DNA of 53,402 nucleotides, filler included, from Sluysia triapertura (taxonomy: Eukaryota): NCBI GenBank assembly GCA_046118255.1. It is 4 parts of 4 records of this genome, joined end to end, with 100 filler letters (N's around TTAATTAATTAA, not from the genome) between each part and the next. Parts side by side here need not be neighbours in the genome. Positions count along the whole stretch, not along the records: positions 1 to 11,377 come from JBJNIA010185413.1; 3 more parts are not named here. The stretch is one strand, 5' to 3'. The position numbers and the translations under genes were made by a program. Shown piece by piece: positions 301 to 53,402 of the stretch. Below the pieces are notes generated by a model. That model was given only the letters and a program-made list of their open reading frames with translations. It was not told the origin of the DNA and searched no databases. How positions within the stretch are numbered: position 1 is the stretch's first letter; each line of letters starts with the position of its first letter.

Positions 301-645
301 ACGCAACCAGTATTAAGGTGTTGCTTTAAGAATTAATAATATCTTAGTAGATTGCGCAACCTTTCTTAAGGTGTTGCTTCAAAACAAGTTTATGAATTTA
401 GTATTTACGCAACCATTCTTAAGGTATTGCTTTAAAAAATTCAGTTTTTTGTATAAAAATTAATTAATAAAACCTAACTCACTAATGTTTATTATAAAAA
501 TGAAAAAATTTACTTATGCTAAAAGGTTACACCAAACAATAATTATAATAACAATAATAATTTTAAGTTATACAATTTAACTTAATAATTATTGTAATGT
601 AAATTTATAGTGAGATTGCGCAACTCTTTTTAAGATGTTGCATAA
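301..645. repeat. Degenerate 53-bp-period array of ~26-bp palindromic units (CGCAACC-N-TTAAGGTGTTGC)
   Basis: CGCAAC starts at 302, 355, 408 (period 53) and 619 (211 nt later, about 4 periods); GCAAC/GTTGC inverted arms in each unit (ATTGC in the third). Confidence 0.8.
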
Positions 646-2617
646 AATAAAAATTATTTTGTGATTTTATGATTCCCTATATTGGTGAATCAAAACTTAA
701 TTAAAATAAAATTACTTGTTCATAGATAAAAGAAACAATTCTTCTATAATAAGTTCCCAAAACAAATATTGTCGAAAAATCTTGTTCTGAATTTTTATTC
801 TGAATTTTAAAATTTATCGAACCTATATATTACCATTTGAAACCTTCCATATTATTTTCAGCCATTTGACTAAATTACTTAATTAAAAGAAAAATAAATT
901 TAAAACAAATTATTTAACTTTTACTTGTCTCACATTTTATTTTATCTCAATTTTTATTATCTAAATTTCATAATTTTTTAATTTGTTAATTTTTTCCTTT
1001 AATTTTATGAATTTAATTTATTTAATTATAATAGAGATAATATTAAAATTAATAAAATAATATTTACAAAATAGCACATAATAAAATACTAAAAAATAAC
1101 ATTGACAATATTAAAACAAAATACAAAAATATGCACACACTTAACATTAACAGAATTATTTATTAAGTTTACATTTGTGTACATGCATTATTTCAAATTA
1201 TAACATTAACCATGCATTAAATATTAATATTTCCAAAATAATTTTAATAAAATAAATATATTAAAATGAACGTGTATTGTTGATGTAACATAAGATTTAA
1301 GTGGACTATCCCATAATTTAAGTTTTATATCCTACACTCACAAAATAAAAGGTGTAAATAAGAGAAAACTTTGCAATAATCATCATTCGTCAAATAAATC
1401 ATTTATTCCTATTATATCAATAATTATTCGTTATAACTAAAACCCAAAATAACTTACTTTTTCCAAAAACTTTAACATTGTCTATTCTCATTTCTTCAGC
1501 TTTTCTTTACTCACACAAAAATTTCTTCCTTTTCAAAACCTTAGGCATATAATAATAATTATTATTATTGTTGTTTTATTCTTGCCATTTTTTAAATTAT
1601 TTTTATTAGTTTTTTATTTCATATTAAAATTATGCATTTAAATCTGTTAAAACAATAAAATACAATGAATAAAGATATGTGACTATGATTGAAAAAACCG
1701 AATAAGCCTTTTGCTAGTTATGCAGATGCCATTTAAGGCCTCAATTATGATAAATCGATTTCTTGCTGAACTTAGTCGATTTACCAAAATTGATAGTATC
1801 AGTAGTGATATTTGTTTGGATATGATAACAGATGTGCTGAACAGCTAATAAAAGAACATTTCCGACAATCATCTTTGCATCGCTTAAAAGAACTCGAAAG
1901 TATCTTCAAAATTCGTGAAGTGAATGTGGAAAACTGGCCACTATGGAAGGTGATCGTAGTAAAAAATGAACGAAATCGTGAATTGCGAATAATAAATAAA
2001 TAATAAGTCCGAATCGTTGTTGTGTAATGAAATTAAAGAATTACGAGAGGTAGTTTCGTTGAAGAGCAAATTTGTGGATCAAGAACAAACATGGACAATA
2101 TTGCAAACATACAATATTAAAACTGGATAAAATCATTATCATGAAAAATCTAAAAACTAGAAGATATTAGTCAGAAACAATGTCAAAAAATAACTCTAAC
2201 GAAAATGAAGGCTCACATCGATCTTTTTTTAGAACAAGTTGCTGATTGGATTAAAAAATTTCAGTATATGAAAGAAACTTTAGAAGACAGTAAATAGATC
2301 TTTGAGCTGTCATCAGTAGACTATATTTAGATTTAACAAATTTTCAATAAATATTTCTAATATTTATATTAAAAAATTAATGCATTTTTAATAAAAAATA
2401 AACCAAATCAATAAATTTTGTTTTAATAATTTCCGTAAAATAGCGTGATTACTTTATGCCGAAAAGCAGATGCATTACGTACTGATTTGAGTCATATGTA
2501 ACGCATTATTCAGAATTTAAAAATTGATGTATTTAGCCAAAGTTCATAATATTTTCCATCAAATAAAATAAAATATTAAAATTTAACCAATGAATAAGAG
2601 ATTAGTCTGTATCTTAA

Positions 2618-2764
2618 TGTTGGGGTAAGAAGGCCTAAAGTGCCATGTAATATAATGGACTAGATAAATATAAAATTGTTAGACGGGGCTGATAGTTCAG
2701 TGGTAGAGCATTCTAACTGCACAGCGAGGGTCCCGGATTCGATCCCCCCTTACAAAGTCTAACA
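2618..2764 (+). mobile_element. tRNA-containing TGTT...AACA short element, copy 1
   Basis: Begins TGTTGGGGTAAGAAGGCCTAAAGTGCCAT, ends AAGTCTAACA; TTAA on both flanks; internal tRNA-Cys-like segment from 2685 with A box TAGTTCAGTGG and B box GATTCGATCC. Confidence 0.85.
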
Positions 2765-3759
2765 TTAATAAGGCATAGAAATAATATCCTTTGCATATTT
2801 GAAAAAATCGAATTCCTAAAATAACTTTAAATTAAAGTGTAATTGTTGATCTTGAAAATCGTAAGAATGTAAATTGTCCACCACAGGCGGACCCTACGAT
2901 AGTAACGTTATTTCTAAGTTGAATTTTGTAGGAAACATATGATATCTTATAATTAATAAAATAAATTTTTTCATCAAATATGACATTTTAGTGTTGGACT
3001 AAAAAAAATTGTAATACAGTTTAAGAAAAGATTGAAATTTGTTTGAAGTTCTTCTTTATTTTTGAGACTTTGAAAGAAAATTTTTCGCATTTCCATTTCC
3101 TACGTTGGAAATAAGTTAGAATTACAACTTCAGAGATAAAACTGTACACATTAAGGTTTTAAAGTTATTTACCATTAATCAAAGTATTGAAACAATTTAA
3201 GTTATTAAAAGTTATCGATTATTAAGTTAAATGGAATAATTTTAAATAATTAGAGGCAAAAGCTCTATAAAGTTTGTAATGTCTTAACGTTTACGAATAA
3301 CTTTCAACCATTAATTATTAGGAAACATATAGAGTAAGTTTGTAAGTTTAAAGTAATAGTACACAATGTTTTATAACACACCTATTTAGCTATCTTTATC
3401 CGTCCTTCTTTTGTTTTAATTTTGCGTTTTATAAAATTTTTATTCTGCACTTAAAATATCTTCACTACTTTTTAATAAGTCATCTGTTAACTATAATTAT
3501 TTGATTTTGGCTTCTCATCTTTATAGTACAAATACTTATCACGTATATTAAATTAAATTTTAAATAATCTACATATTATTATTATTATTATTATTATTAT
3601 CATTTCAAAGTCCTAATACTTATTTTCGTCACATGAATACACATAATTTAAACAAAGTTATAATTGAATTAAAATTCAGAATTGACAATTAAAATGAAAT
3701 TAAAATGAAATATATCTTTTTTATTATTGCAACTCAATACCACATATTTAGATAAGCAA

Positions 3760-3940
3760 GTTTTGAAATTGAATTTATTGAATTGAATTCATAAAAAGTT
3801 AAAGTTTTGTTCAAATTTATTAAGCACTTAATATAATAGTTTAAATATTCTAGTAACATCTGCGGAATTCTGTTATATAATTTATCAATTCGAGAAAAGA
3901 ACAAATTAATGAGAATTTATTTTGATAAAAAATGATAGAT
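3760..3940 (-). mobile_element. Decayed LINE ORF2 C-terminal remnant
   Basis: Minus strand reads SRIDKLYNRIPQMLLEY...NKFEQNFNFL, resembling the CR1/L2 terminal R..KLWN.LP...FK..L motif. Confidence 0.35.
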
Positions 3941-5680
3941 TAACTCTAACTTTGCATAATTTAATTTATTACAAGCATTAATTAATAATGCAGCATTTAT
4001 CTCTTTAATAAAGACTTTACTACAACACCTTTAAAAAGGAATTTAATAAAAATGATCCTGTAGATGTTCATAAATTAAAAGATGTCGTTTGATATTCTAA
4101 AATATGTGAGAAAAGTACAATAGAATAAAGTAAAAGCTTAAAGTGAGTACACCAACGTACTGGACTTACCAGCTAGGGCCAGCCGTTAGATTTTGTAGAT
4201 AAGAGTAAAAAGAATTCCTTCGAAATGCAATGTTGGTTAAAAAGGAAACTTCTTTAGTTGGTCCTACTTTTGAAAATTCTGGCAATATAAATTTGTTCGT
4301 CGAATAAATCTTAGTAAATCAAATCAGTTGGTGGTAATATTGATAATCTGTTCGTCGGAGAAATTCCAGCGTTTAATAAGTCAGTGACATTTAGTCCACT
4401 CGTTCGAAAAGTTCTCGAATTACGTATAGTACAATTTGGTGGCATACTAAGTCATTCTAATTAGATCAAATTCCTGTGTGACCTGAATAAATAATTTAAA
4501 TGATTTGCGATCGAGAATTTGAAACTATGAGTAAGCTTTGTATGTTAAGTTTAATCTCTTTTAGGAGATATAAAAATACAACTCAAAATCTTAATCATCA
4601 CGTTTAGTTTCGGCTAGATAAAATCATTTTTAAAATCTTATTATAGCTTTAGAAATCTTTTCTAATAATAATTTTAATTTATTTTTATTATTATTTGAAA
4701 TAAATTGTAATATATTTCTCGTTTTTTGGTAATACATTTTGTAGTTTTGTCTTTTATTTAGTTGATTTTTTAAAGTAATTACTAAATTAACGAAGTCAAG
4801 TTCAACTGAATTAAACGTAACATTTTAATTTATCTTTAGAATTAATAAGCAGTCACTAAGCTAAAGAAGCCAATTTCAACCGAGTTGAATATAATATTTT
4901 ATTGATTTTTAAATTATAAAGTAACGACAAATACTTAGTTAAAAAGAAGCATAAATATAAAGTTTTATATTCTTAAATAAAATTAAACATAATTAAGGAA
5001 TTACATACAAGACAGTTCTTTTCCAGAATTAAGCATTTATACTAAGAAAGAGAGTAACCTTTGAGGAGAATAAGGTTTTTAGGTAATTTATATAAGAAAG
5101 TTAGAACATAAGCTAATTGTCAGAAAAAACCCTCAGAAGTTTTCTAAGCATAAAAGACTATAGATTCATAGTTTTTGTTATTAATTACAAGAAAAGAGTA
5201 CATATTCGCATATACTTTAATTACAAGAAAAGCTTTTTAAGTCTACGTGCTGTTACTTACGAGTGCCTCTTCCTAGGGTTAAAGTTTACATGGTAAGTGG
5301 ACCTTTAGAATTAAATAATCAATTTGCAAAGTACAAGAAAATACTAGCATAAATATAGAAACCGATTCATGTGAAGAAAACAAGGAAGTAATATTAAATT
5401 AATTTTATATAATTTAAAATATAACCAAAATGAAATTTTAGAAGAAAATGTATTGTCCGAAACAAATTTGATGGTGAAGTTCATAATAAATCATCACTTT
5501 CAATAATTTTGAATAATTACATTTTAGCAGAATCTTACCTCACATTATATTGTTTTTTCTAAATTTATTTCAATTTTCTAAATTTATTTACATTTTAAAT
5601 TATAAATTCAAAATATTTACCTACAAATACATAGTTTTATAATATAGTTATTTTATAATATAGTTATAGTTAATGCATAG

Positions 5681-6900
5681 TTATTTTATATTTAATATTT
5701 TAAATAGATCTTTTGAACAAACTGCAACGTATTTTTGTACTCTAATCTTTTTGTGATTATGTAAATTTCGATTGTAAAGTAAAATTATTTGTAAAAGAAA
5801 AATAATAGTATGCAAAGATATGGAACTAGAAATTTGTGATATGTATGAAAAATAATTGTTGGAAAAGAATATAAAAGTAATAGTAATGATTTTTAAATTA
5901 AACAAAAACGAATTGATAAATTTTAGTTCAAAGAAGTGTAATAAAAATATATTTTAAAATTATCTCATTACCAAAATACGATTCCTCTCTAATGTGGAAC
6001 ACATATTTCCAAAATTGATTTTGATATCGCAGAACTGAACTTTTATCACTGGAGTGTTTTATTTAATTTCTATTTGAAAATTTTCTAACCGTTAAAATAT
6101 ATGCTAATGATAAGAATAATGAAAAAATTGAAATTGTCTCTTAAAGTTACAATTGTTTCTATTATTATTTCTACAATTATTACAACATTGCCGGAGATTG
6201 CCATCAATCCATTGAAAGGCTAAAAGTATACCCCGAATTAAATACTCTAAAAACAATTAGTTTATGTGAATGTGTTGACAGATGAATCTTGACTTAGTAA
6301 AAGGTCGATTTCAGGTTTATACGAATTGCTTATAATATTTTGACTTTGACAAGTGTATAATCAAATGTTTCAAATTAGCTATCATTCGAAAAAGTTTTCT
6401 GAATTAGTAATATATAGGTCTCAGCAATGATACATTGGTGAAATGTTTCTTTTTTCTGTTGCTACAAAACTGAATTTTTGCATAAGCCTAGATATGGCAT
6501 ATACTTACGCGGAGAAAATGAACTATGAATTACTTACTTAACATAAATGATGACTAGATGAATATTCAGCATATTGATCAATACAAAGATTGTCAGGTAA
6601 AATAATAATAAAAATTTTTATCCTAAAATGGTAAATGGTAGCTTTATCTCAAATTTTGTCATCGTAAGGGGTGCATCGGTGTTTCGTTTAAAAGAAAAAG
6701 GATTAAAACTTCGTTCATTTTCTATTTTACTTTGTCGTTGAGTATTTGAATTATTTTTGGATACTACATTTACATTTAAGCACTGATTGAAGAAAAGCTC
6801 ATTTTATACTTTGGAAACGATTAAATCAAATAAATTTATCAAATAAACAATTATCAACAATACTTTTCCATGGCAGCATTAGTTACGCTGAACTTTTAAA
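5681..6900 (-). pseudogene. Degenerate LRR-containing GPCR (LGR-like) remnant
   Basis: Minus-strand fragments across stops and frameshifts: LRR-like KTFRMIANLKHLII, then IVFRVF...LMAISGNVVIIV resembling LGR TM1 (LRVFIW...A..GN..V), then hydrophobic ORF 5681..5905. Confidence 0.35.
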
Positions 6901-7740
6901 GTGTCTATTATCGACAATAGAATCCAGTCGCGTCACATTTCGATGAAATTAATTTTAAAAAGGAACAATCGCTTTATGGAATAATCTTTATGGAATGTAA
7001 TCTTCACAAAATTAGATCAGTACTAGCATACTTTAATGATATGCATTTTATCACGTTCGACAATGCGGTGTCCGTTATATATCACAAAATCGAGAAAAGT
7101 TTCAGTTTACCTTTCTCTATTTTAAACTATTCAGAAACTTCTCACTAAACTTATCCTTGTCTATTTTTATTAGGTAGTTGGATCACAGTATACATAATTT
7201 AATCAATAAAATTATTTAATTATAATGAAATGTATTAAATTTAGTAAAAGTTGTATATCAAAGCGTCTATTATAATCATTTTACATAATTATCCACACAA
7301 TCATTTTATCACGTGCAAAATTTGTAAAATTTGGTAATTCAGGAAGTTACATTTATATCATATATATTCTACATAATGACAAAGGTTAAAATTTTAATTT
7401 TAAAATTATTTAGATTTGTAGTCATTTTAACATACATAATTACAAAGTTAATTTCTAAAAATAAAAAATAATTTATTGTTTTTATATAAACGAATTTATA
7501 TTTATTACATTAATTAAATACTAATTAATTATTTAATTAAAAATAAAAAGTATGACAGAAAATAGCGTTTATGTTATACACAAAAATACTAAATATGCAA
7601 TATTAATATGGAACTTGTCGGTGAAAGTAATTATTTCATTTATAAAAATGGTTATATAATAGCGGTTTATGAAGGCTAAATAGCATAAATGTTAAAATTA
7701 ACTAACATGTCTAAAACAAAATCAGTCTCAGTAAAACAAT

Positions 7741-7840
7741 TTATGCAGAATATAAGGTGATTATAAAACTAGTGATAGAGATAAGAGAAAATATTAAATT
7801 ATCGGTAGATTACGAAATATTTAAAAAGAAGGCATAATAT
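7741..7840 (+). mobile_element. 5'-truncated LINE 3' fragment (same family as 24450-25560)
   Basis: GATTACGAAATATTTAAAAAGAAGGCA matches AATTATGAAATATTTATGAAAAAAGCA of the minus-strand LINE end; upstream TGCAGAAT...GTGATAG also aligns. Confidence 0.6.
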
Positions 7841-8004
7841 ATTAATTGGTGTGATTTTTTCCACCATACTTAAATCTTACAGCAAAATGAGTTTATTTTA
7901 CGGATTAGGTTGATTATCCACAACTTATAACATAGAGTAGATGCATTTGTAATTTTTTTAAATTAAGTAATTCAAATCTAAACTGCTTAATATGAGATTA
8001 CTTA

Positions 8005-8110
8005 GAACCTCTTGTTCTGACCACTAAGCTAACAGGCCCAACTAACCATTTTTTAATTATAGTTAATTATATTATTATTCTAAATGGCACTTTAGGCCTA
8101 TACCTCAACA
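8005..8110 (-). mobile_element. tRNA-containing TGTT element, copy 4 (3'-truncated)
   Basis: Reverse complement reads TGTTGAGGTATAGGCCTAAAGTGCCATTTAGAAT...GGGCCTGTTAGCTTAGTGGTCAGAACA; B box and 3' end absent. Confidence 0.75.
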
Positions 8111-8276
8111 GAGTGACAATTAATCCCTGAAATATGATTGATCTTATTTGAGATAAATTTTACCTTTACTTACTTAGTTTAAATTAACTATTAAAATGAA
8201 AATGAAAGTTGTAGTTGGTCGTTTAGCTTCGAATCGTCTATTGATTTCTGAATTTAATATTTGTTAATTTTCTTTC

Positions 8277-8434
8277 TGTTGGGGTAAAAGGCCTAAAAGT
8301 TCCATTTGGTAAAATTGAATTTAATAAAAAAACGAAATTTTAATCGGGCTTATAGCTCAGTGGTAGAGCATTCGAACTGCGCAGCGATGGTCCAGCGTTC
8401 GATCCCCGGTCAGTTCATTTTACGAAGTCTAACA
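8277..8434 (+). mobile_element. tRNA-containing TGTT...AACA short element, copy 2
   Basis: TGTTGGGGTAAAAGGCCTAA start, AAGTCTAACA end; GGGCTTATAGCTCAGTGGTAGAGCATTCGAACTGC...GTTCGATCC is tRNA-Cys-like; flanks TTTC/TTAC. Confidence 0.85.
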
Positions 8435-9962
8435 TTACCACTTCATTTTCCATTTTCGCCACAAAATGCTTTAGTCTTGTTACAAATTTCTTGGACTTTT
8501 AGTTTTAATTCAGTTTATATGTAATTTTTAATGTAGGATATTAGAGCCCAGAACTGCTATTATTATTATATTATCATTATTTCAACTGGTTGTGGTTTTC
8601 TTAATTCATAACATACGGCAAAATAAAATTGTGCAGGGTCCAGCCACAGTAAATGTCTTATGTCGTGACATGGAATATAAAATCACTGAAAATCATTAAT
8701 CGCCTTTTTGATTTTTATTAATTTTAATTTTATTATAAATTTTAAGAGGGTCTTATAATACATCAATCTTATTCCAATTATATTAAACAATTAATTCAAA
8801 ATTCTGGTTAGACTGATAAGGTACATTAAAAAACAATATCTGAAAGTCACAATTGTGTAATCAACCTCTTATAATTTATCTTGGGTTAGACTAAGTAATA
8901 AACAAGAAATATGAAAAGTTATAATTAAAATAGAAACATGAACAAAAAAGACAATAATAAAAGAAAAAAATTTAATTTACAATTAAAATCCCAAAAGAAT
9001 TTTAATTTTTGTACCATGAATTTTATTTATAAATTATTATAGTCATTACATCTGGATTAAAATTCGTTTAAGAAAGATTTTAAGTTGGAGTTTATTATTT
9101 TTATTTCTTCGAGGGAAAATAAAAATACCTTAATAAAAACAACTTACTATATCATGGAAAATAAATTGATGTTGAATTGGATGATCTATAGAAAAGGAAT
9201 TGTCCTGCTTGCGGTGGTCCCTAAATTCAGTAACAATTGATGAGAAAACCATTGAGATCGATAGAGTATCCAAAAATTGATAAAAAAATAAGATGACTGA
9301 AATTTAGGTTTACTAATTGTCATTTCATTGTGATTAGCTGCGGCTATTTACATAAAAACCAACAGCCCGATCTCGGAAAGCAAAATTATATATATTTCTT
9401 AATTTTATTTTTTATGCTACGCTATGCTATATATAAAAATAAAAAATTGACATTGAATCAAGATATTGTAATATTTTAAATAAAATTTGGATGATACTCT
9501 TGACCGAGTTATAGTATTTCTTGATCATCAAGAATGTTAAGAAATTTCGTAAAGTACCTAATGAAGGAATCGAAATTCAAGACATAAAATGTGATATATG
9601 TAGAGGATAAAGAATCTTGTATTTCAAAATCGAAGCATCAACAAAAGCTTTTGGAAGAAATGTGGTGACTCTGAAACTGATGCACTATATATCATGCTAG
9701 AAGCTTCCAAACCTAGAGGAATACCTTTATCATGTATTCAGTTAAAAGAGCTGAAACAGCATCAGACACAATTGATGTTTTAATAAGAACCTTGAAAGAC
9801 CCGAATTTTGATGGTCCGCTGGATATTTCAAAATTTTAAATTTTAGAATTGAACAATTTAGTGACAATGTTGATTAGATCATGCCAAACCTGAAATATCT
9901 GAATAAATCTTGTTTTAAAATTTAGGTTGATGATCTAGTCTAGAAAAGGGTTAGAGCATTAT

Positions 9963-10114
9963 TGTTGAGATAATAAGGCCTAATGTGCCATTTAGAATAT
10001 TATAATTGACTGTAAAATAAAATTCTTAGACAGGGCCGATATCTCAGTGGTCAGAGCATGGAACGAGAGGTGCCGGGTTCGATTTCCAATCAATCCATTT
10101 TATAAAGTCTAACA
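9963..10114 (+). mobile_element. tRNA-containing TGTT...AACA short element, copy 3
   Basis: TGTTGAGATAATAAGGCCTAATGTGCCATTT start, AAGTCTAACA end; A box TATCTCAGTGG and B box GGTTCGATTTC with a shortened anticodon arm; flanks TTAT/ATAT. Confidence 0.85.
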
Positions 10115-11305
10115 ATATGTTAACTGAAGTACAAAGTAAAATTAAACTAACTGAAGTGGTGTTTACATCTATGATAAAAATTCTAAAGAAACAGTTTGTA
10201 ATTTTTATCGTTTATTTTAGAAATTAAATTTGCTGCTTATTCTTTGCTTTTGATTTACGTAGAAACGTAGAGTAATTAAGCTTCTTTTTAATAATCCTAC
10301 TGACCTTAAGTCAATGGTTTCAACTTCAGAGTGCTTTAAACTATTTCACAGAGATAGTAAATTTTATTTCAAAGTTATATGCATCACTAAGAAATGTTCA
10401 AAAAAGGTCGTACACCAGCAGTAATTACTATCACTAAGTTTAATAAATATAACACATTTTACATTCAAAACCCTAAAATTAAGACAATAGTAAATAAAAG
10501 TAATGCTTATTTTTCAAAAATATACATAACATAAATATTATAGAAATAAAATGCCTCAACCGCCGAAAGATGAATAATACTTTAAATAATTTATTTCAAA
10601 AAAGCATTTAATATATAATTAAAATAACATTTTTTTAATTATTAAATTATTTAGTACATAAAATTTTAATAAGTTTTATGTTTTAAAACTTCACAAAAAA
10701 TATTTAATTTATACTTATTAAAATTTTCTAAATAATGAAAATGTAGTACAATAAATACAGAAAGTATTTACAGTATAATTTGCAAGTTGATTATAAAACA
10801 TTTGAAAATTAAATCATACACCCAATGCGAGAAATGTATTTGACTTTTGAAACAAAACTGAAGGTTTTTAAAAATTATAATAGATCATATTATAATTATA
10901 GTCAATCGTAAATCAAGAAATAGGGCAATTGAAAAAAAACAAAAATATATAATATATTAAAGTTAAATTTTGTACATTAATTAAAATAAAAAAACCCAGG
11001 AATTCACATTCAACTTAGTCATTGGAAAAATTAATTAAGCATTATATATATATCAGTTTTCAAATAAACTTCAAAAAAACAATTTTTTAAAAAATTTATT
11101 TCGTTAGTATAATTGAAATTATTTGTTATGTATTATAACTACAATTGGAAATTTGCAAAAATTAATAATAATGATATTTAATAATAATAATAATAATAAT
11201 ATGGTAAATAATAGAGCATAAAATAATTTAAAATGTCAATTTCAAGAAAATTAGAATTCACAAATATTAAGTGCGAAAATGATAATTTTATGTATATAAA
11301 GTCCA

Positions 11306-11377: not shown

Positions 11378-11477
11378 NNNNNNNNNNNNNNNNNNNNNNN
11401 NNNNNNNNNNNNNNNNNNNNNTTAATTAATTAANNNNNNNNNNNNNNNNNNNNNNNNNNNNNNNNNNNNNNNNNNNN
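11378..11477. other. Artificial scaffold spacer (N44-TTAATTAATTAA-N44)
   Basis: 100-nt gap with a six-frame stop linker; identical structure at three places. Confidence 0.97.
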
Positions 11478-12400
11478 GCCCATTCACACTTACTGGGCTT
11501 AATCTTTAATCCTGCAATTTCAAGACGTTGTAAAACTTGTGCTATATCTTCTATGTGTTCTTCGAATGATACTGAATAAATAAGAATATCATCAATATAT
11601 ACCATAGCGTGTGTCACATCCATCAATATGTGTGACATGCATCTCTGAAATGTTGCTGGACCTCCCGTCAATCCAAAAGGAAGAACATTAAACTCAAACA
11701 ATCCATTATGTGTAGTAAATGCTGTTTTAAATTTATCCTCTTCAGCAATTTCAATCTGCCAATAATCTGTTTGTAAATCTATGGACGCAAAAAAGGTAGC
11801 ATTATTTAGTTGATCTAGCATTTCATCAATTCGCGGTAATGAGAATGTATCTTTTTTTGTTACATTATTTAATTTTCTATAATCAGCACAAAATCTGAAT
11901 TTTCAATCTTTCTTTTTTTACCATAACTATCGGAGAAGCCCATGGAGAAAAACTACGTCGTATCACATTATTCTGTTTCATATCATCGTAAGAGCGTAAG
12001 CTAATCTGTATGGTTTTTGTTTCATAGGTTTTTCATCAGTAAGAGTTATATAATGTTTTATAATGTTTGTTCGTCCTAAGTCGGTTTCATTTTTAGCGAA
12101 AACCGTCTGAAATTTGTTAAACAATTCCATCACTATCTTGTTTTGTTCCTTTGTAAAATAGTCAAAGTGAATATCGATTTGATTTATTAATTAAACATTT
12201 TTACAGGTTCTCTGACTGATTCGATAGGTAATAAAATCCAACATTAGTCTCCTTTCTCAATATCACATTAGAATTTGAATAATTTAATATTCCCAACGGG
12301 ATAGTTTCATTATTTGCATTAACTAGCTCATTCGGTAAAATTAATGGAGTATTTGGTATTGCTCTTAATTTTGTTGTTTCAAAAAGTAAATCAAATTGGC
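11478..12400 (-). mobile_element. Ty3/Gypsy LTR retrotransposon pol fragment (reverse transcriptase)
   Basis: DLGRTNIIKH, KQKPYRL, SPWASPIVMVKKKD, RFCADYRKLN, LPRIDE, KTAFTT, PFGL..GPATFQR, YIDDILIYS, KPSKC; frameshifts upstream; cut by the gap. Confidence 0.96.
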
Positions 12401-16279: not shown

Positions 16280-17600
16280 ATAATCGTGTAGCTTTTACAC
16301 TAATTTTGATTATTTGAATATTTGTAAGGTTAGCGACTTACAAATGCACAAATAGTAGTTCGATATTTTCAAATTTTGTGTCATCACAGTATAAAAAGAT
16401 GAAGAAGATGTATTTTATCTTAGTAAGTAAACTTGATAATAACCTTTAGTTTCATGTAATAGAAAAATAGTGAACAATATAAAAAGAGGAATAAAATTTA
16501 TCTACTAACGTGAAATATACTAAAATATTCGTGCAGCTTCAGAGAAGTAGTAAGAAAAATTAGAGCCTCGATAAAGTTAATGTTCAAAAGTCCATTTTTA
16601 TTTCCGAGAGAAGTGCTTTCCCAGAGCATTTAAGTCCTTTACTAAAGATGTAACCGTTATATACGTATTTTATTTTGGCAATAAATGTGTTATTAAAGAA
16701 AATAATATTGCAATTATAACTAAAAATTTAGGATCTGATAAATTACAATTTCTATGAATAAATTTAATTAATGAAGTTTTGTTGCGAACGAAAAAATAAA
16801 ATAAACTTTGGCCAAATAACTTCGCGATATCTAACAAGTATAGCATAGTTGTTAAGAATCAAAATCCTACATCTAATAAAATTACAATTTCTATGAATAA
16901 ATTTAATTAATGAAGTTTTGTTGCGAACGAAAAAATTAAATAAACTTTGGCCAAATAACTTCGCGATATCTAACAAGTATACTATAGTTGTTAAGAATCA
17001 AAAATATAATAAATCCTAATTTATCTTACAGTTGTAAAGATTTAAACAAATGCTAATAAATAAAATTTACGGAATTTAGGTACAAGAATTAGTTTAAGAA
17101 TTTTATTAAGAATATGGATTGTGTTTAATCGTTGACACATAATACTTGCTTGATAAAGTCAAAGTGGAAGTGTAAATTATTAAATATTATAATTGAAGAA
17201 CCAAAAATTGTAGTAAAAATGATTGGTAACATTTGGTTTTCCAAATGCTCCTGCAAGAAATTACTTTAATATTGAGTTACACAAGGTTGATTCCAAGAAT
17301 AAATACCATTAAATTTTAATACATCTAGATAGTAGAAAATACTTAATATTTGGTTCTCCAAATTTGGTATTTTTTCGTAAAAAAGATTCATGAATAATAA
17401 ATTTTTTCTAAATTAAAAGATGGTTCATCTTTGCCCTATTCTAATACTTAAACTACAGATTATAAATTATGGAAATGTATCAATTTCTATTGGTTTATAA
17501 CAAATATGTTCTACTGATTATTTTCAATAACTTATATTTGTTAATATAAATTATAAAACTAAATTCAAACAATTGTTTAAAACATGATATTGTTTAATGA
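16280..17600 (-). pseudogene. Second degenerate multi-TM receptor remnant
   Basis: Minus strand FYEKIPNLEN (LRR-like), GAFGKPNVT, LSDPKFLVIIAILFSLITHLLP, TTICAFVSR*PYKYSN; stops and frameshifts. Confidence 0.3.
16740..17003. repeat. Near-identical tandem duplication, ~125-bp unit, period 139
   Basis: AAATTACAATTTCTATGAAT...GTTAAGAATCAAAA at 16740-16864 and 16879-17003 with about three substitutions. Confidence 0.95.
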
Positions 17601-19338: not shown

Positions 19339-19707
19339 TTAAACATATATGTAAAAAATTTTTACAATGTCTTTGAAGGTGAAAAGCCTAGTCCTGCATA
19401 CAATTCTTGGAAGGCCATGTTCACTAACAGAAAAATAAACAAAATGTGTAATGTCACAATGATTATTAAAATTATACAATAAGTCTCGTTCATTAAAATT
19501 CTTTTTATTTTCTTCGTTTGTAGGATTCAGTGCCATTAGGTCTTCTTAAAATTCCGCTATTATAAAAGATTGACACTCATGCTTTGGTCTTAAGTCTTCT
19601 TGAGGTTCTAGTTCATATATCGTTTGTGCGTAGTGGCAAGAGACTCCGTTTTTGATACATAGACCATATTCGTCGATATAGTATGGACAAATCACGGTAA
19701 AATTCAT
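19339..19707 (-). pseudogene. Intronless CCCH-zinc-finger-like ORF with one internal stop
   Basis: MNFTVICPYYIDEYGLCIKNGVSCHYAQ (C-x9-C-x6-C-x3-Q; CAA is one base from His) in frame with ORF 19339..19536 across a single TAA. Confidence 0.5.
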
Positions 19708-19859
19708 TTTATACTCATTATATTTATAGAGATCATTACTGGTACATTAAACTTTAATAGTATAGTAACTTATGTTTGCAGAATCACTGTCTTTATAGAA
19801 ATATCCACTCTTGTTATAACATCCATCTAAAAAGTTATTATTTCTGTTATCATCATAAA

Positions 19860-24449: not shown

Positions 24450-25560
24450 ATTATATATAATAATATATTAATTTATATTGCGCTCATATCTACTATACTC
24501 AAAAGCACTTAAGGTAAATCATTAACCATAATATTTCTGAAACAGAAAGGACTTTGCTTTTTTCATAAATATTTCATAATTTTCCAGCAATTTGACATTC
24601 TCTGGTAACTGGTTGTATATTTTTGAGACATAGACAGTATACAACCTATCACCTAGCTTGTTATCACTGTGAATTCTACACAGATTATTATTATGTCTCA
24701 ATAAAATATTCATCTTCATTTCCAATTTTCGTATTATTTCCAAAAGGTATTCAGGACTTCCATCATTATTATTGTCATTATTTTGAATTATATTCTTGCT
24801 TTTATTGGCAATCAATGTAATTCCTTAAGATAAGGTGATACTTTCTTCATCTTTTAACCTTATTATATATGTTTTCATTTTCATGATTCCTTTTCCAACG
24901 ATATTTTATTATATCAATTCATCGTTTTGTATTGTTTCTTCATAAACTTGTAATTCCATGCGTTTTTCACACAGCTGGGCAATCCCATCATATCTCATTC
25001 CAGAAGTAAATGTCTTACTTGAGACATAAAAAGAAGGAAACCATGAAACTCAGGCAGCGATAATAATATCAGTGATTATATCACTATCATTAATATCATT
25101 ACTTAAATCATTAATTACAAGTTTAGGTAGAACTGCATGTGGGTTTTCCAACTTGCATTTAAGATGAGATTGGTTAATGCCGTCATTAGCTGATTTAAAT
25201 CGATTAATAAGTTACCATTCTTTGTTTTTTGTAATTGTTTATCCTGGAATTTTTAAAAATGCTTTTGAAATCTACAATACTATCGCTGTTTTTATCCCCA
25301 TCCTTTATTAAAACCATTCTGTAGCTTTTATTAATGTTATTTGTTTTTTTGATTTTATTGTCATTTTCATCTTTAGTATTTTCAAAAAAATATAACGGTA
25401 ACTATTTTGTGAATGTTGGTAATAAAATAAGCCCAAGTATCTCTTTCTACATACAGTTTATTGTTAGGCCAACTTTTGTATTCCGATTCGTACAATCAAA
25501 GATTCCTCTTCACCAATAAATAAAGAAAATGAATCACAAGCTTGTTTATAAGAAACAACT
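24450..25560 (-). mobile_element. Internally deleted LINE (CR1/L2/Jockey-like): ORF1 remnant plus ORF2 C-terminus and 3' UTR
   Basis: NKLGDRLYTVYVSKIYNQLPENVKLLENYEIFMKKAKSFL is a LINE ORF2 end; upstream KNGNLLI...LPKLVINDLSNDINDSDIITDI is ORF1-like. Confidence 0.7.
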
Positions 25561-29487: not shown

Positions 29488-30267
29488 GTAAGTTTAGTAT
29501 GTATACATGGAAAATATAAACAAGTAATTATTACTATAATTGGTGCAAATTCGCAAATATTATTGAAAAATCTATGCGCATTTTATTTTCATGTTAATAT
29601 ATTTTTATTAATTTACAGTTGTATTTTTATATAATTTTAAACTTAATTTAAGCAATACACGTGATTCATTTTAAAAAGATTATTGCGTTTTAAAAACTAC
29701 CTTTATAAGATAACTAAATAAAAATCTTTACCTTGCATATACATGAAAATGTAACATTAAAAACAAGAGTAATAATGTAAAGAAAATAATTGTTAAAATA
29801 AATATTTAATAAAGAATGAATTGTGGTGTGAACTCCTGATACCAATTTAGTTTATAACTTTTATTTTAACTTCTGTGTTTTTGAATTTTTCTAATGACTA
29901 TTTATATTCAAAGATGATTAGCTTAATTTATTCCACTAGATCACGATTATGAATCAGAGAATAGTTAATGTGTGTAAATTTATTCGATAAAATAACGTCG
30001 TTTTGCAAATATGCCGACTTTTTATTTTATGTAGACTAATAATTTTAACACTAATAATAATAGTGATAGTTATTAAACTTTATATTTTAAGTTATTATTT
30101 ACAATTAAATTAAATAAATATTATATTTATCCACAATTAAATAAATGTCATATTTTTTAATATAGATATTAGATATAAATAGAATAAATAATTTAATAGT
30201 ATTTACATAAATATTATATTTTTAATATGCATATAAATAGAATAAGAATAAATAATATCTACAAAAA

Positions 30268-30399
30268 GATTATGAAATATTTAAGAAAAAGGTAAAGTTC
30301 TTTCTGTTTCGGAAATATCGTGGTGAATGATTTACTTTAAGCGCTTTTGAGTACTTACGCAGCAGATATGAGCGCAATATAAATTAATGTATTATTATT
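30268..30399 (+). mobile_element. 5'-truncated LINE 3' end (same family as 24450-25560)
   Basis: ATTATGAAATATTT...TTTCTGTTTC...ATGATTTAC...GCTTTTGAGTA...AGATATGAGCGCAATATAAATTAAT is highly similar to the reverse complement of 24465-24585; followed by ATT repeats. Confidence 0.85.
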
Positions 30400-32789: not shown

Positions 32790-34190
32790 AGGTGTTGGCT
32801 CATTGCATCAGTTTTCCCTGAGACGCGGATGCAAATGACACATTTTGTTTATGCCTTAAAAGGTGCGCGCTTAATTTATGGTCATGATCTTTAAGTAGAA
32901 CTGGTTCTATCAATATTGTTGTGGTTTCATTCATTCTGTTATATTGTTGGTTATAGGTTGTTAAATATATATACAAGTTTAATAGATAATTGAATAGCTT
33001 ATACTCTAAGTAGATTCTTTGATCTGTAATCATCCTTTTAGGTACACCAAATCTTGAAATCCAGTGTGTAATTGAAATTCTATATCTGGTCTCCATGGAT
33101 ACGGATCTTATAGAAAACGACTGTCAGTTTGTAATCGTAAGAATCCTTTGAATTCGGAAGATGAACGACATTATTTATGTATATTGTTTCGAATAATTGG
33201 CTAGTAGAAAAATGGAGGGTTTCTGGTTTGCTATGTTTCACGATCTTTACAGATTGTAAAGTTAAACAGGCTTTGCACTATTGTTTAACGTCTTTGTGCA
33301 TGAAAGGCCATACAACTTTGGAATGCTAAAGTTTACAGGTAGCTCTTGCTCTTAATGAGTTATATTATGCACATGTTCGAAAGCCTTTATGCGCACATTT
33401 GGTCCTTAAACTGGGATAATGATCAAACTCGCGGAGCATAGAGTTATGCAGATATTTTGACCTGAAGGAGAACTCTGTTGAAGTTAATCAATTGTGAACA
33501 TAGGTAGGATTTCTGTACTTCTGATAATGTATAGCACATTTTCTTGTCCTGAGATGTGTTCAATGTCGAAATTGAAATAGGCAAGCTATTTACTGTGCCG
33601 TTGAAGGATTTGTCAGTGAAAATATAGACCGTTCATAGAGTAAACTTTGCTTGAATGAGTAAATAATCAGTGTTTGACTGATAAATATGTCGCCAGAAGT
33701 TCGTGAGCAAATGTTGCATATCACGTTTTAACTTGTGTAAGTAAAATTCGATTGCTATAGAGAAAATGTTCTGTTTTTGCACTGGTGCTGCGTCATTTGT
33801 TGTGCTTGAATAAATGTTTGGCAAAGGGAAGACCAAACTCTGCATGCTGATATGATACCCTTAACCTATGGAAAAGCTGATAGAAGTGTTAGCCCATTTT
33901 ATGATTTGTATTTTACGGCGGAAATTGACCAGGCCTAGGAAAATTCGCATTTGGTTGAGGGAAGTATTGTGGTTATAATCTTATCATTTAAGGGTTTAAG
34001 ATTACTGTTGTTATTTTTGTTACACATATCATTACAACGGGCTTGATCTACGTAAAATCTACAGTTACGACAAAATCGGTGCTTAAGGCACTCGAAAATT
34101 TCTTTATAAAGAACGTGCGAAAATTTTATTATACACAAATAAAAAGAGGTTGATAAAAATTGTTGACACACTAAAAAAATTAACAACTAT
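32790..34190 (-). mobile_element. Heavily deleted Gypsy gag-pol remnant (RT, RNase H and integrase pieces)
   Basis: WISRFGVPKRMITDQ (integrase core), KVVWPFMHKDVKQ*CKAC (integrase Zn finger), VYIFTD (RNase H), GYH (RT), Cys-rich gag-like end. Confidence 0.8.
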
Positions 34191-37387: not shown

Positions 37388-38247
37388 AATTTTCTCTATT
37401 TGGATAATTTTTATAATTGTATTAAACTTCACTTCTATACAGGTTATATTTAATCATGTTTTAATGTAATTTTTTTTAAATTTGATATAACAATATTCTC
37501 TCAATCTTTAATTTAAGTTAACTTTGATCGAAAATAATGTTATTAATTTTCGATTGCACAGTAGTTTTACTCAACCTCAATTTAATATAATTTTAACTCT
37601 CATGCAAACAATATTTATGTTCTTAAAATTTAATGTTATATTGTCTTTATAGAATCTCACTTTAAAATGATTAATTACTTTATGTTAATCAAAACTAATT
37701 GTTATCTGTTATCAAACTTTGAATTTATATCAACTCTATTGAATCTCATTTTAAATTGACAAAAGCACTATAATCTTAATGAAAATGATTTTAATTTTTT
37801 AGTGGAATTTAATAAATATTATGTTACAAATATAATAAATTTAATTTTATAACCGTACACCAAAATATTTATATAAAATTTAATAATAAATATTAATATT
37901 ATCCGTTATTCAAGAAAAAGAAACAAGAATTACATAGAAAAATAAATTGTTACAAGTCAAAATATAACAAAATAAATCTTATGACAAATAATTACTGTCT
38001 ATATAAATCTAAAACTGATTTTAATTTTTAACCTAAATAATGTTACTGTGCAACATTGTATCTATTAATTGTTATCTTTTAAGTGTTTTAATCATTGTTT
38101 GTACAAAAATGTAAATAAAACTAATTAAATAAAAATAATAATATAATGTAATATATAGAAAAATTTCATTGAATTTTATTGGCTTACTCTGATTGAATAA
38201 AAATAGTATTTCATTAAAATTATTTCATTATTAATGTAAAACAAATA

Positions 38248-38575
38248 ATGATTTGGTGGTATTATTTGATCGCATTAATAATATTTTCTATTTCGAATAT
38301 AAATTGCAATAATACCATGTTAATATATAAAAATGAATATTATCCACGAAATGGAACCTGTGCGAATTTTTGGTATAAGATAGAGGGAGCTGCTGTTGAA
38401 TATGAAAATATTGATTTACCATTTACTAATTTAGAAAATTGCAAGGATATGTGTCTAAGAAATCCTGAATGTCATAGTATTGATATGGGTTTGTCACAAT
38501 GTTACCTGAACAAATATTCCGATAAATACAAATATTATAATTCTTACACACTTTATGTACTAATGTGTTTAAAAG
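38248..38575 (+). CDS. Exon 1 of a secreted/surface protein: signal peptide plus PAN/Apple domain
   Basis: MIWWYYLIALIIFSISNINC signal; LENCKDMCLRNPECHSIDMGLSQCYLN PAN core with an outer Cys pair; phase-1 donor G|GTTAAT. Confidence 0.88.
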
Positions 38576-41500
38576 GTTAATTTAATTCAATATTTTAAAA
38601 TTATTAAATTTATTAAAAAATAATATAAATTCTTATTGAATAATAAAAGAATAAATATTTTTACCCATATTTACAGAAACTATAATAGATAATTTAAAAT
38701 AGATAATTTTTATTGAAATTTAAACATTAAAATTGTTAAAATATGTCAGTGATATTACAACAGTCACAGAAATATTAATAATAATTTTTATAGTGATAAT
38801 ACCTTTTACTAAATTAGTAATCAGAAGCCTCAGACCACGAAATTATTCATTGTATCATATTATATTAATTATATTATAATATATTTTTCATTATATTTTG
38901 TAATCTATTTATTTAGTTGCTGATTATAGATTGTTGTAACACATATCATATATATAACATATCACTTATCTTATTATCACTGTGCATTCTGCATAAATAT
39001 TCATTCGGATTTACTCAATTTTTATTATCTCAAAGCGATATTCAATACTCCGTTAATATAAGAATTTAGATATTACTAAGATGATTTAAATTATTCTCAC
39101 TTTTATTTGTAGCAAGTGTAATTCTTTAAGACAGATCCCATTTTTAATTGAAATATTATTCTTGCTGATTCATTTATTACTAATTTTAAAATTTTCACTT
39201 TATTGTATGTATTTGAGTACAATATACATTTAGTAAAATTTATATTATTAGAGAGCAACTAATTTTGTCCTATTTTTATTAATAAATATTATATTAGATG
39301 ATATTCTCTTCAATTAGTATTTACACTATTTTACAATATTGTCATTAATATTTTCTTTATTAGTTTTACGAGGTGAAAATGAAAATACATAGTTAATTAT
39401 GATGGACAATGAGTTACATGTAATAAAACTAAAATTTTCTGACAATTCAAACAACAAAGTGCATTGTAATAAAATATGTGGCAATATAAAGAAGTAAGTA
39501 AATTTCAGTAATAATAGTTTAATTGTTATTTTACGAATCTAACGAGAAATTATCTGTTCCACGTATTCGTCTGATTCAATTTAGAGAAAGTTAAAAAACT
39601 TCAAATATAAAGAATGTTGCAAATGCAATAAAGGCATTTTCGAAGAAGGAAATCAAACATCTATTTACATATTTTTATCCATGATGATCTTGTTATTTTT
39701 TGTTATTGTAAGTTCATCTCATATAAGTGAGACTAAAAATTTCCTAAAAAATTGTTAAATCTTTCAAATTTTGGTAGCACAATTTTAAAATCTTTATCAA
39801 AATTCATTTCAGATGTTAGAGTAAAACCTCTAATACATTAAATTGTTTTATTTTATATCTGATAACATTACGAATTTTAATAAATGAGTTTCTTTTATAT
39901 TTTATATTTCTAAAGTATTTTCTTAAACATTTAACACTTTCGTAAAATTATAATATATTTGTGTATATATTACACTTTTATTGTAATAAAATTTGCGGTT
40001 CATATTAGACACATTAATTTAAATAAATATTTAGTCGATATGGATTGTAGCATTAATCTAGGTTTATAAGGGGACGCTCTGGACAGAATAACCAATAGCT
40101 ATTAAAGGTTTCGTTTTGAGTCGTATTTATTGCTAAGTCCTAGCTCAGACATAAAACGATCCCATAAGTGAGATCAGTAATTTGTTCTACAAAGAGAAGA
40201 ACAAAAATGGCAACACAATCTAAATTTACTTCAACTTTCTGTTAAGATTTATTTCAATCTCAAAGCCGAATAATAATAATTGGGGAAAATTTCTTTTAAC
40301 GTCTATCCAAAACTTCACTGTAATGTTGACTAACTTGGCATTTGCGAACATAATAAAATCTTTTTTTATTACTAAAAATATATTCTTTTAATAATTAATG
40401 GAGCAAGATCTATCCGAATTAAGATAAAACATAATTAACTAGATTATTAATTATAAAACAAATTTGAAGAACATAACAATAACATGAAATGTAATAAGAA
40501 TAAAATATAAATTGATCATTACAAGATTTCTACAAAATGTTATTTGAAATAAAAGACGTGCTTTAAGCATTTTCTACGCATTTTAGCTACAAATGATATT
40601 CAAGTGTATATCTCTTTAAACCTGTTTCTCGCTGATTATATATAATTGAACTGATAACGATGGTCGATGAACAAATTTCAGTAGACATATTTAGGTTGAA
40701 ATCAAAAAGCCTAACTGTTAATTATAGTAGTTTTCCGTTTAAAAATTTATGAAATTATTTTTAAAATATGTTATTGGTTTCAGCAAAATTTTATTACTTT
40801 TATTAAAACCAAAAAAAGAAGGACTTAAGGTCCTTTAAAAAACATGTCATTGAATTGAATAACAAACAAGAATAATTAATTCCATTTATTAAACAATTAA
40901 TACAAATAAAAACACTAAAAAATTTGTTATAAAAATCAAAACTAGTTAAAATTTTCAACTTTATAAAATTATTGAAACCTAGCCCACAGTAGAATTTCCA
41001 ACTAAAACCTTGTTCGCAAGAAGTGATTGCATTTCCTTAAGCAAAGTAAAATTTTCTTAAATCAAAGGCATTTTGACTTAAACATGAAACACAAAGCTTA
41101 ACAATACATGCTCGGGTAAAACTGTAGTGAGATTCTTGATTTTTTTGAACTAGTTTAGCCGCCTTCCGTTCCTTCAGCTTCGCTTTTAGTTTAGCACAAC
41201 TTAAAGGCAATTTATTTTGAAAATCATCATCGAACAAAATCCCGTTTTTTGAATATTTAAAATAAAAGTAACTTCATTTACATTATCTAAATTATTTTTA
41301 GTATTAACTTGTTCAAAGTCTACAACGCGTGCTTTGACGTTTTTGTGTGACCTATTCGTGGCTCTACTTTGTAACATTTATATTTTCTTAAAAGTTCATG
41401 TGAACTTATGGTAAACATAAAAATATTTCTTCTGAAACACTTTCTGTGGACTCTAATTGACAATAATTAAAATGAAAATATGAATTTAGTTTTACAAATT

Positions 41501-43169: not shown

Positions 43170-43262
43170 CTGAAAGATTATGAAATATTTAAGAAGACAA
43201 TTTATTTCTATTTCAGAAATAACATAAAAAATATCATACTCTAACTACTTTTGAGTATTTAT
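43170..43262 (+). mobile_element. Diverged 3' fragment of the same LINE family as 24450-25560
   Basis: GATTATGAAATATTTAAGAAG...TTTCTATTTCAGAAATA...CTTTTGAGTA. Confidence 0.65.
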
Positions 43263-46423: not shown

Positions 46424-47822
46424 GTTAGTGATTGATCTTTTATATATCACAAATTAATATTTTATTAATTCGCATTATTTAGTAGTCTTATTAATTTATT
46501 ATTTTTTCTAATATTACTTCACATTTAGGGTGGATCTTTAACGCTTGTTGCCTTGACATAGTTTTATAGTCTTTCGAGATGTTTACAAGATTTATAAAAT
46601 GAGTACCAAGTGAAATAAAGTTAGATTGACAAAGGTGACAAAAATTCTTTAGTAATTTTGTTAAGTTCTTCGACACTCAAAATCTGTTTACAAGAATTTC
46701 ATAAAAATTTTCATAATGAAATTAATTGAAAACTTAAGATTGTTGGATCACAATAAACTTTTACTAGCCGCATAAAATTTCCGTCTCATCATATAATTTA
46801 AAATCTTTTGAAAAACTTAAAATTTAATTGTTAAGTTGTCATCGCAACCCTCTAAAATTATGTAAATTGCTCCAAAATCATTTATAAGTCTCCTAAAACC
46901 TTTAAAATAACTTTAAAAATATTCATTTTCCAAATGATTATTTTTCATAAAAAGAAAATTTACTCCTATAAATAGATTAGAAGCTTCTGGAACATTGCAT
47001 CAATTCTTATTGGTTGATGACTATTACATAAACAAACATCAGTAAAATCACAAGAAACACAATGTATTTAAATCGATTATAGTGGCCTTTTTGCTTTTAT
47101 CATTTTAGTAATTTATCATTCCAGTTTTATTCAATATTGGTGGTATAACTATTTAGAACCTGTTTTTACCATGTTTATCAAAAGTTATTTTTATTAATGT
47201 TAAAACATTAGTAACGTAAAATACATTAAAATTTTTATATTTAAAGTATATAGTACTTATGGTTAAAATCCACTCAAAATTATTATAAACACAATTAAAG
47301 ACCCTTAGCGGTTTAATTCTACTTTATTTCTGTCTTAGTTCGTCTTTATAACATAGTTTAATTTGTTTCTTTCTCTCTCTGTCTCTCTCTCTCTATATGT
47401 AGTGAATTTATTAGATTTAGTTGAAACGCAGTTAAGATTTTAGTAAATACAATAAGTAAAACGGGTTATACAAGTGAGCATTAAGTATAGACCCTCAATA
47501 AGTTATATTATTAGTTATTAAATTGTTATTTTATACAGTTACAGGAACGGCCACTCGTCATTGTAAGTCCTTTACTATAACCGGACCCTGCTCAAAAATA
47601 ATTTTCCGAAGGTTAAGTGTCAGAAAAACCACAGCATAATAATATTAAAGTTACATGATATTAAAACAAAAAAATTTAATATATTTTTTATTAATATATA
47701 TTAAATATATTAAAATTAAATACAAATAAAATTTTTATAGGATAGATAATTTTTTTAAAGAATTTATAAAAAACATTCTTTTCACTAAGGATTAGCATAT
47801 TTTTCTTAAATTTATTATTTAG

Positions 47823-48098
47823 TGAAATATATTTTTTCGAGACCACCAAATTATCCAATATTTCCGTCAAAAAATGTTACTTCACGATTGTACCTCTTTC
47901 TCGGAAATTTAATTACCTTAATTAATTTGAATTGTTCCATATATGAAATTAATAAATGTAACTTCCTATTTATCAGCAGCCATCAAAATTACACATTTCA
48001 CTATATTTCGTTAAAAAACAATACTAAAACTTGTTATTATTGTACCTTTTTTTGTATTTCTTTACACAATATTATAGAATTACGGTTATATTCTTGCA
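47823..48098 (+). CDS. PAN-protein internal exon, module B1 (Cys-rich)
   Basis: TTTAG acceptor and A|GTAAGT donor, open phase 1-1; LNCSIYEINKC...YYCTFFC. Confidence 0.8.
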
Positions 48099-48699
48099 GT
48101 AAGTTCAGTTTATTGTTATATTAAAAATTTTTGTAATATATGTTTGTGTGTTGAAAATAAATTATAGAATATCGCTTATGCAAAACAAAAATGAAATATG
48201 AAAATAAAAATAAGTAAAAAAGTAAATATCATCTATAAATGAAATAAGCATTAATTCATAGATTGCAGTTTTTATAATTGGTAATATTTTTCGAGTCACT
48301 GGATTTTAATTTTGAAGAGAGCTATCGGAAATCAAAAATCAAATGTTACTTTTTTAGTGATATCAACATTGAATTTTCCTTTAATTAAATAAATTGTTTT
48401 AATTAATATGTTGAATGTTGTTTACAAATTTACTATTATTTTTGTAATATATAATTAGCGATACACGTTTTATCTTTTAACGTGTGAAAAGATGAATGAT
48501 AGAATTGTTTTGGATATTTAAAGTATATTTTATGTAATTGTTGATTGATGAATTAACAAATTTCGACAATATAAGAAAATACGTCCTAAAATAAAGGTAA
48601 TGACACGAATAAATAAAAAGAAAGGTGTTAGTGACTAAACAGATAATGATATTTATAAGTTATTAATAAATAAACAGATTAACATAAGCTAAAATAAAG

Positions 48700-52627: not shown

Positions 52628-52695
<68 letters not shown>

Positions 52696-52696
52696 T
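52628..52696. repeat. (AAT)n microsatellite
   Basis: Perfect run. Confidence 0.97.
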
Positions 52697-52751
52697 TCAC
52701 ATTTAGTTCAATGTTATCTTGAAAGACCTAAATGTTATCCTTTTTTCCCAG

Positions 52752-52994
52752 AAAAAAATGATTTTATTACAATGAGCAGTTATTGTCCCGAAACAAAAAT
52801 AAAATTAAATATGAATTGTACAATTGAAGAACTTCCATGTAATGATTTTTTGCTGAAAATCTTAGATTCTGAAAATATGGTAGCTGAATTTTATTTTATC
52901 CATTATAAATTTTTAAAAGTACTTAATTATAAATATTGTACGTTTTTATGTTATCGAAAGTATTTGTTCTTCACATTAAAGATTTTTATCAACA
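52752..52994 (+). CDS. PAN-protein internal exon, module B2
   Basis: Polypyrimidine tract with CAG acceptor and A|GTTAGT donor, open phase 1-1; MNCTIEELPC...KYCTFLC. Confidence 0.82.
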
Positions 52995-53402
52995 GTTAGT
53001 TAATTAAATTATTAATTCATGAGATGTTGTTATTTTAAAAGAAAAAGTGTCTTCAATTTTCAAATAAATATTCATAGCAAGATAAATCTATACTTATTAT
53101 TATTGTTGTGCATACAATAAAAACTCTTCGTGTACATTAATTGGATTTATAATCAAATCTTAAAATATAATCAAATATCAGAAAAACAAATTTTATAGCA
53201 TTCTTGATTTTTTTAAGTATTGTAAAGATTAATTATTAATAAGAAAATTTCTTTGTAAAACTATCTAAAATTTAATTACACCAAAAAACTCCATTAAAAA
53301 CAATAAAATTATTGCTAATAATTACATTATAGAAAAATATTATGTAAATTAAAAATTAAGTCAAAAAGTAATAACATAATAATAAACAATAAGTGAATAA
53401 AA

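Follow-up and report, generated by a model that had tools for sequence, protein, structure and literature searches.

In a window of 53.4 kb of AT-rich DNA from the eukaryote Sluysia triapertura (the whole stretch that was analysed; GC content 21-32% per 2 kb) we find four copies of a repeat of about 150 bases, in which a tRNA-like cassette follows a fixed leader. We regard these copies as most likely solo long terminal repeats (LTRs) of a terminal-repeat retrotransposon in miniature (TRIM) of the Helenus type (TRIMp3), which would depend on Gypsy elements and be driven by RNA polymerase III (Pol III). [quoted passage not shown] The preliminary description of this DNA had proposed solo LTRs of a tRNA-bearing, Pol III-driven TRIM. 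The anatomy fits that proposal, the class itself is already published as Helenus/TRIMp3 (PMC10886601) and is thus not new, and the use of Pol III and the paired form are what we infer. The copies are likely to represent a new family within the published class and not a new kind of element.

The window is made of four pieces with three 100-base gaps between them, and all four copies lie inside the first piece. Three copies are full (147, 158 and 152 bp) and one is truncated at its 3' end. When c1, c3 and c4, the full copies, were combined into a profile, it recovered these as self-hits at 2618-2764(+), 8277-8434(+) and 9963-10114(+), and it independently recovered the fourth (c2) from 8110 to 8016 on the minus strand (E = 3e-11), while nothing else in the 53.4 kb scored under E = 3.7. 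Pairwise blastn comparisons link c1 with c3 (E = 2e-20) and c2 with c4 (E = 1.4e-9), and identity among the copies is 75-84%. The four places named in the preliminary description are therefore borne out by profile and blastn, with c2 found as 8016-8110. Its density of four copies in 7.5 kb holds for the part in which they all lie and becomes four in 53 kb over the whole window. The copies and their parts, together with the target-site duplications (TSDs) beside them, are as follows.

2614..2617, plus strand: left TSD of c1, TTAA, from the comparison of flanks
2618..2764, plus strand: c1, 147 bp, a solo-LTR-like TGTTG...TAACA unit
2677..2684, plus strand: inner inverted repeat of c1, 8 nt, the complement of that copy's final 8 nt (2757-2764)
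2686..2750, plus strand: tRNA-like cassette within c1, with its A box at 2693 and the core of its B box at 2738
2765..2768, plus strand: right TSD of c1, TTAA, 4/4 match; junction lies within a contig with 0 differences
8016..8110, minus strand: c2, reduced to its 5' part with leader, spacer and A box; lacks the 3' end and a partner for the TSD
8277..8434, plus strand: c3, 158 bp, the most complete copy; flanks TTTC (8273-8276) and TTAC (8435-8438)
8346..8417, plus strand: tRNA-like cassette of c3; pairs in acceptor 6/7, D 4/4, T 3/5; anticodon arm broken
8418..8421, plus strand: T4 run of c3, directly after the discriminator base; resembles a Pol III terminator, function predicted
9963..10114, plus strand: c4, 152 bp; flanks TTAT (9959-9962) and ATAT (10115-10118)
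10033..10101, plus strand: tRNA-like cassette within c4; its anticodon arm is shortened, and T4 comes next

The copies c2 and c3 stand head to head, 166 bp apart (8110/8277), and a similar head-to-head joint is present in at least two other contigs of the public run introduced below.

As a sample of the family across the genome we used X1, a public run in the form of contigs. It contains 85% of the words sampled from 2000-10500 and is possibly the source of the window itself, so that it lends no independent support. At 80% likeness, 13,823 of its contigs were placed on 2500-10250; what we report of them refers to the best 6 of 1,778 rows of loose ends, the best 15 among 209 joints and the best 40 among 504 rows of letters. 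Both ends of c4, and the 3' ends of c1 and c3, continue into their flanks within contigs that show 0 differences; the pieces listed do not reach across the 5' junctions of the other three copies (c1, c2 and c3). Exactly at the 5' TG (8110), 202 contigs stop matching, and 153 do so exactly at the 3' CA (8434). The flanks beyond these points are long (median 255 nt) and unrelated to each other (agreement 0.43-0.45), and it follows that the family is sharp-ended and present in many copies. Both the high copy number suggested earlier and the sharpness of the ends, for which ragged ends had been named as the refuting case, are thus upheld in X1. The summed depth, which is no copy number, reaches about 1.05-1.16 million within the tRNA-like part, to which genuine tRNA genes or further repeats may contribute. 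In c1 the leader has 25,746, and unique DNA has 12-22.

The family is built of TGTTG...TAACA ends, a leader of 68-70 nt and the tRNA-like cassette with its A and B boxes, and both leader and spacer are AT-rich. Read on the two strands, the ends are TGTTG and TGTTA; they fit TGTNR and are complementary over 4 bp only (8-11 of the first 30 terminal positions are complementary). As expected of solo LTRs, the full copies are each enclosed by a 4-bp match of their own. We compared the flanks of the three full copies at lengths 2-10 with random local DNA. The pairs TTAA/TTAA, TTTC/TTAC and TTAT/ATAT, which had been proposed as 4-bp duplications, match at 10/12 letters (p = 0.00037, or p = 0.067 under the strictest null; n = 3), and the enrichment is limited to length 4, every other length giving p >= 0.097. 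The boundaries listed above rank first among 441 offsets. A match of 10/12 letters is about the retention expected for copies that are 16-25% apart.

The tRNA-like part begins 68-70 nt after the TG, and the boxes reported in the preliminary description are present. Every copy in the window has at most one mismatch per box against the motif used, with c2 retaining the A-box part only. The acceptor, D and T arms are retained: c4, for example, pairs at 5/7, 3/4 and 3/5 positions, respectively. A T4 run follows the discriminator base in c3 and c4, and in c1 a deletion of about 10 nt took out this run together with the 3' acceptor strand. In X1, three positions in the stems of c3 and one in the A box of c1 have the letter that pairs or is canonical in most of the depth. 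The anticodon arm is a different matter. Its stem pairs at 0-3 of 5 positions in every register tried, and the arm is shortened in c4 and variable among other X1 contigs. ARAGORN found 0 tRNA genes at its default setting and, at a threshold of 90%, c3 only, as 'tRNA-???' (below 90% it gives mostly noise). The Rfam tRNA match of c3 has 24.1 bits, below the cut-off of 29 bits, and none of nine stretches folded as RNA was more stable than its shuffles (best z = -1.5). Judged by its sequence, the cassette is a promoter-like relic of a tRNA, mostly non-functional as such. No isotype can be called, because the anticodon arm is broken and variable, and we have dropped the earlier label 'tRNA-Cys'.

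For the inner inverted repeat of c1, the chance of a match of at least 8 nt is 0.007. In c4 it is 6 nt long (10026-10031 / 10107-10112, chance 0.08), and it is not present in c3. The bases just before the tRNA-like +1, complementary to the 3' end, may be what is left of the 5' end of a shorter LTR; alternatively, they may pair in the RNA and extend the acceptor stem around the T4 run. For an inner unit of 88 bp starting at this repeat, there is no pile among the loose ends listed.

What connects these copies to Helenus? PMC10886601 describes Helenus elements as TRIMs whose LTR contains a tRNA-like sequence; in it the A box (TRGCY..YGG) and the B box (GGTTC) are conserved and the tRNA is mostly non-functional. 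Conserved boxes next to a variable anticodon arm are this very pattern. The animal LTRs are 104-323 bp long, with TSDs of 4 bp in animals and 5 bp in fungi and Selaginella, and the helpers of the animal families are probably Gypsy elements. Some families are recorded as solo LTRs only, with no internal part determined, and are filed as Helenus nonetheless. Compared by eye, the animal families (the bivalve Helenus-2_CGi and Helenus-5_SaGl and the brachiopod Helenus-1_LAn) share with ours the order of TGT...ACA ends, leader, tRNA-like part, T-run and short tail. Further likenesses are the LTR size (147-158 bp here), the 4-bp TSD (n = 3 here), the degenerate anticodon arm and the frequency of solo LTRs. 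On the other hand, here we see no paired LTRs, PBS or PPT, the leader and spacer are AT-rich, and an inner inverted repeat precedes the tRNA-like part in c1 and c4. The 10-nt motif at the 3' end has 0 matches in the published file of Helenus consensus sequences (line breaks could hide one; the comparison is with this file, and Repbase or Dfam may already have an entry for the family), and accordingly ours is not one of those families. In the literature, as far as its available text goes, only Kojima 2024 (PMC10886601) was found as a description of tRNA-bearing TRIMs, and one paper from 2026 cites it. The Cassandra and Ajax TRIMs are similar in that they are non-autonomous and that their short LTR contains a Pol III promoter derived from the gene of a small RNA; they differ in that their sequence derives from 5S and not from a tRNA, and the TSD of Ajax is 5 bp (PMC10886601; PMC7215508, available parts).

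The steps by which such copies could arise draw on PMC10886601 and on general LTR biology for the parent element, the use of Pol III, the read-through and the helper. The parent would have two such LTRs around a short spacer with PBS and PPT. Directed by the internal A and B boxes, Pol III would begin to transcribe at the tRNA-like +1 in the left LTR, and its transcript would run past the left T4 run and terminate at the right one. The leader of about 70 nt would then correspond to U3, the tRNA-like part to R and the last 15 nt or so to U5. Reverse transcriptase (RT) and integrase of a helper Gypsy element would copy and insert the element, producing the 4-bp duplication, and recombination between the LTRs would leave a single LTR between the duplicated four bases, as observed. 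For Helenus itself, Pol III transcription is predicted and not demonstrated in PMC10886601.

Several observations weigh against the assignment to Helenus. After none of the three full copies do the first 9 nt contain the TGG of a PBS, and a PPT stands directly upstream of none of the four (3-9 purines in 15 nt); next to solo LTRs, the lack of both is expected. No joint between two LTRs is present among the best 15 of the 209 in X1, and the majority flank at the 3' end of the repeat has no PBS signal; the loose ends listed are the best 6 of 1,778, and a collapsed internal region could be hidden among the others. The flank signal is weaker under stricter nulls (p = 0.0035 with letters shuffled, p = 0.067 with position-wise shuffling; n = 3), and flank pairs taken from different copies match too, at 14/24 letters. 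A preference for T-rich targets may therefore contribute to the 4-bp signal, and three copies cannot separate the two. The depth of about 1e6, although it is no copy number, is a hint that the family outnumbers the highest published figure for Helenus (5,575 LTRs). The Gypsy RT near the copies sits on the far side of an assembly gap. Finally, an animal host is no more than plausible, judged by a PAN-like and a CCCH-like open reading frame (see below) and by the Gypsy remnants.

The Gypsy RT near the copies is a broken one at 11477-12214(-) (Pfam RVT_1, E = 3e-30), with up to 71% identity to unnamed polyproteins, and further Gypsy remnants are weak matches to the integrase region at 32881-33355(-). 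Both were matched by a set of 12 Gypsy polyproteins, and the presence of such remnants in the window counts in favour of the Helenus reading. We also considered whether any copies could be joined into a larger element. The pairs c1+c3 and c3+c4, 75-83% alike, were rejected as paired LTRs: their outer flanks agree at 3/4 and 1/4 letters, respectively, and neither pair has a PBS, a PPT or an enclosed Gypsy match. Likewise, c1(+) and c2(-) were rejected as giant terminal inverted repeats (TIRs), since their outer flanks TTAA/GAGT do not match.

Potentially, the copies could be solo LTRs of a larger LTR retrotransposon, either an autonomous Gypsy element or a large retrotransposon derivative, whose LTR acquired a tRNA or a short interspersed element (SINE). 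We think this unlikely. The same termini, the 4-bp TSD and the solo state would all be expected of it, and 'not a few' LTRs in Repbase carry tRNA-like parts, of which Kojima 2024 retained TRIMs alone (PMC10886601, available text). However, 12 Gypsy polyproteins gave no match to the stretch between the copies (tblastn, E <= 0.05), and an intact cassette with A and B boxes in an LTR of 150 bp fits the TRIMp3 layout, Pol III being thought unsuited to long elements (PMC10886601, same text).

It is quite improbable, in our view, that the repeat is a self-moving, non-autonomous DNA unit whose TGTNR ends are recognised by a Ginger- or Gypsy-type integrase and for which no form with PBS and PPT exists. 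Only solo units are seen, the copy signal is very high, no PBS signal appears among the listed loose ends, and Ginger1 and Ginger2 share the TGTNR termini and the 4-bp TSD. Their TIRs, however, measure 40-270 bp and 50-180 bp, respectively (PMC2836005, available text), compared with 4 bp here, and on this point the Ginger-type miniature inverted-repeat element offered as an option in the preliminary description fails. The CCGG/CCGT targets of Ginger1 are found at 0/3 full copies, and the word 'tRNA' occurs 0 times in PMC2836005. Moreover, the unmatched outer flanks of the inverted pair c1(+)...c2(-) indicate that the unit does not itself serve as a TIR, and a DNA element has no evident need to retain A and B boxes and three tRNA arms. 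In a stronger form, to which we give little credence, the 150-bp unit would be the whole mobile element: an LTR-like, tRNA-bearing cassette freed from its parent with PBS and PPT and spread by integrase acting on the TGTNR ends to thousands or tens of thousands of copies. Besides TRIMs and SINEs this would make a third route, and in a lineage from which Helenus is not known.

Very improbable is a SINE of tRNA origin that is unusual in having a fixed 5' leader and a fixed 3' end: like SINE2 elements the repeat is short, in high copy number and has tRNA-type internal A and B boxes, and one copy is truncated at its 3' end, but a Pol III transcript beginning at the tRNA cannot include the leader of 68-70 nt, the tRNA part is internal with both ends fixed, the CA end has no simple tail (153 contigs), and the flank matches peak at 4 bp only, whereas SINE2 elements have a LINE-like or simple-repeat tail and TSDs that vary in length. 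The earlier remark that this is 'not a normal SINE' stands on the same grounds.

Exact-pattern scans of metagenome contigs, prokaryote genomes and viral contigs gave 0 loci; these collections are not suited to this host and carry little weight.

The window contains further repeats. A second TG...CA element, of 80 bp, lies at 8591-8670(+), with flanks TGGT/TGGA (3/4) and no A or B box found; 236 X1 contigs end exactly at 8591, its summed depth is 3-5e4, and a decayed copy lies at about 47562-47633(-). It probably represents a different small LTR family, again as a solo LTR. At about 4120-4194 there is a short high-copy repeat that occurs once in the window; its bin depth is 1.1e5, with 98 contigs ending at 4194, and 4313-5607 is middle-repetitive, with a summed depth of about 400-4,100. 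There are also a 53-bp tandem repeat in three copies at 280-437, with one more at 613-657, a 139-bp tandem duplication at 16733-17003 (96%) and a dispersed repeat of about 130 bp in three places (24457-24583, 30266-30398 and 43170-43261). Among the open reading frames, the one at 38218-38577(+) is PAN-like with a start resembling a signal peptide, and the one at 19549-19746(-) resembles the CCCH finger of Unkempt; both are below the Pfam cut-off, and no close homologues were found for either. Two others, at 47810-48121(+) and 52694-52996(+), resemble each other by eye.

In summary, a high-copy family is added to a class first described in 2024, in a host that is probably outside the taxa listed for Helenus. 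Families that bear a tRNA inflate the counts of tRNA genes (PMC10886601) and are misfiled as SINEs. An abundant family would be a good place to test whether Helenus elements are indeed transcribed by Pol III, and to ask how a transcript gets beyond the T4 run in the left LTR.

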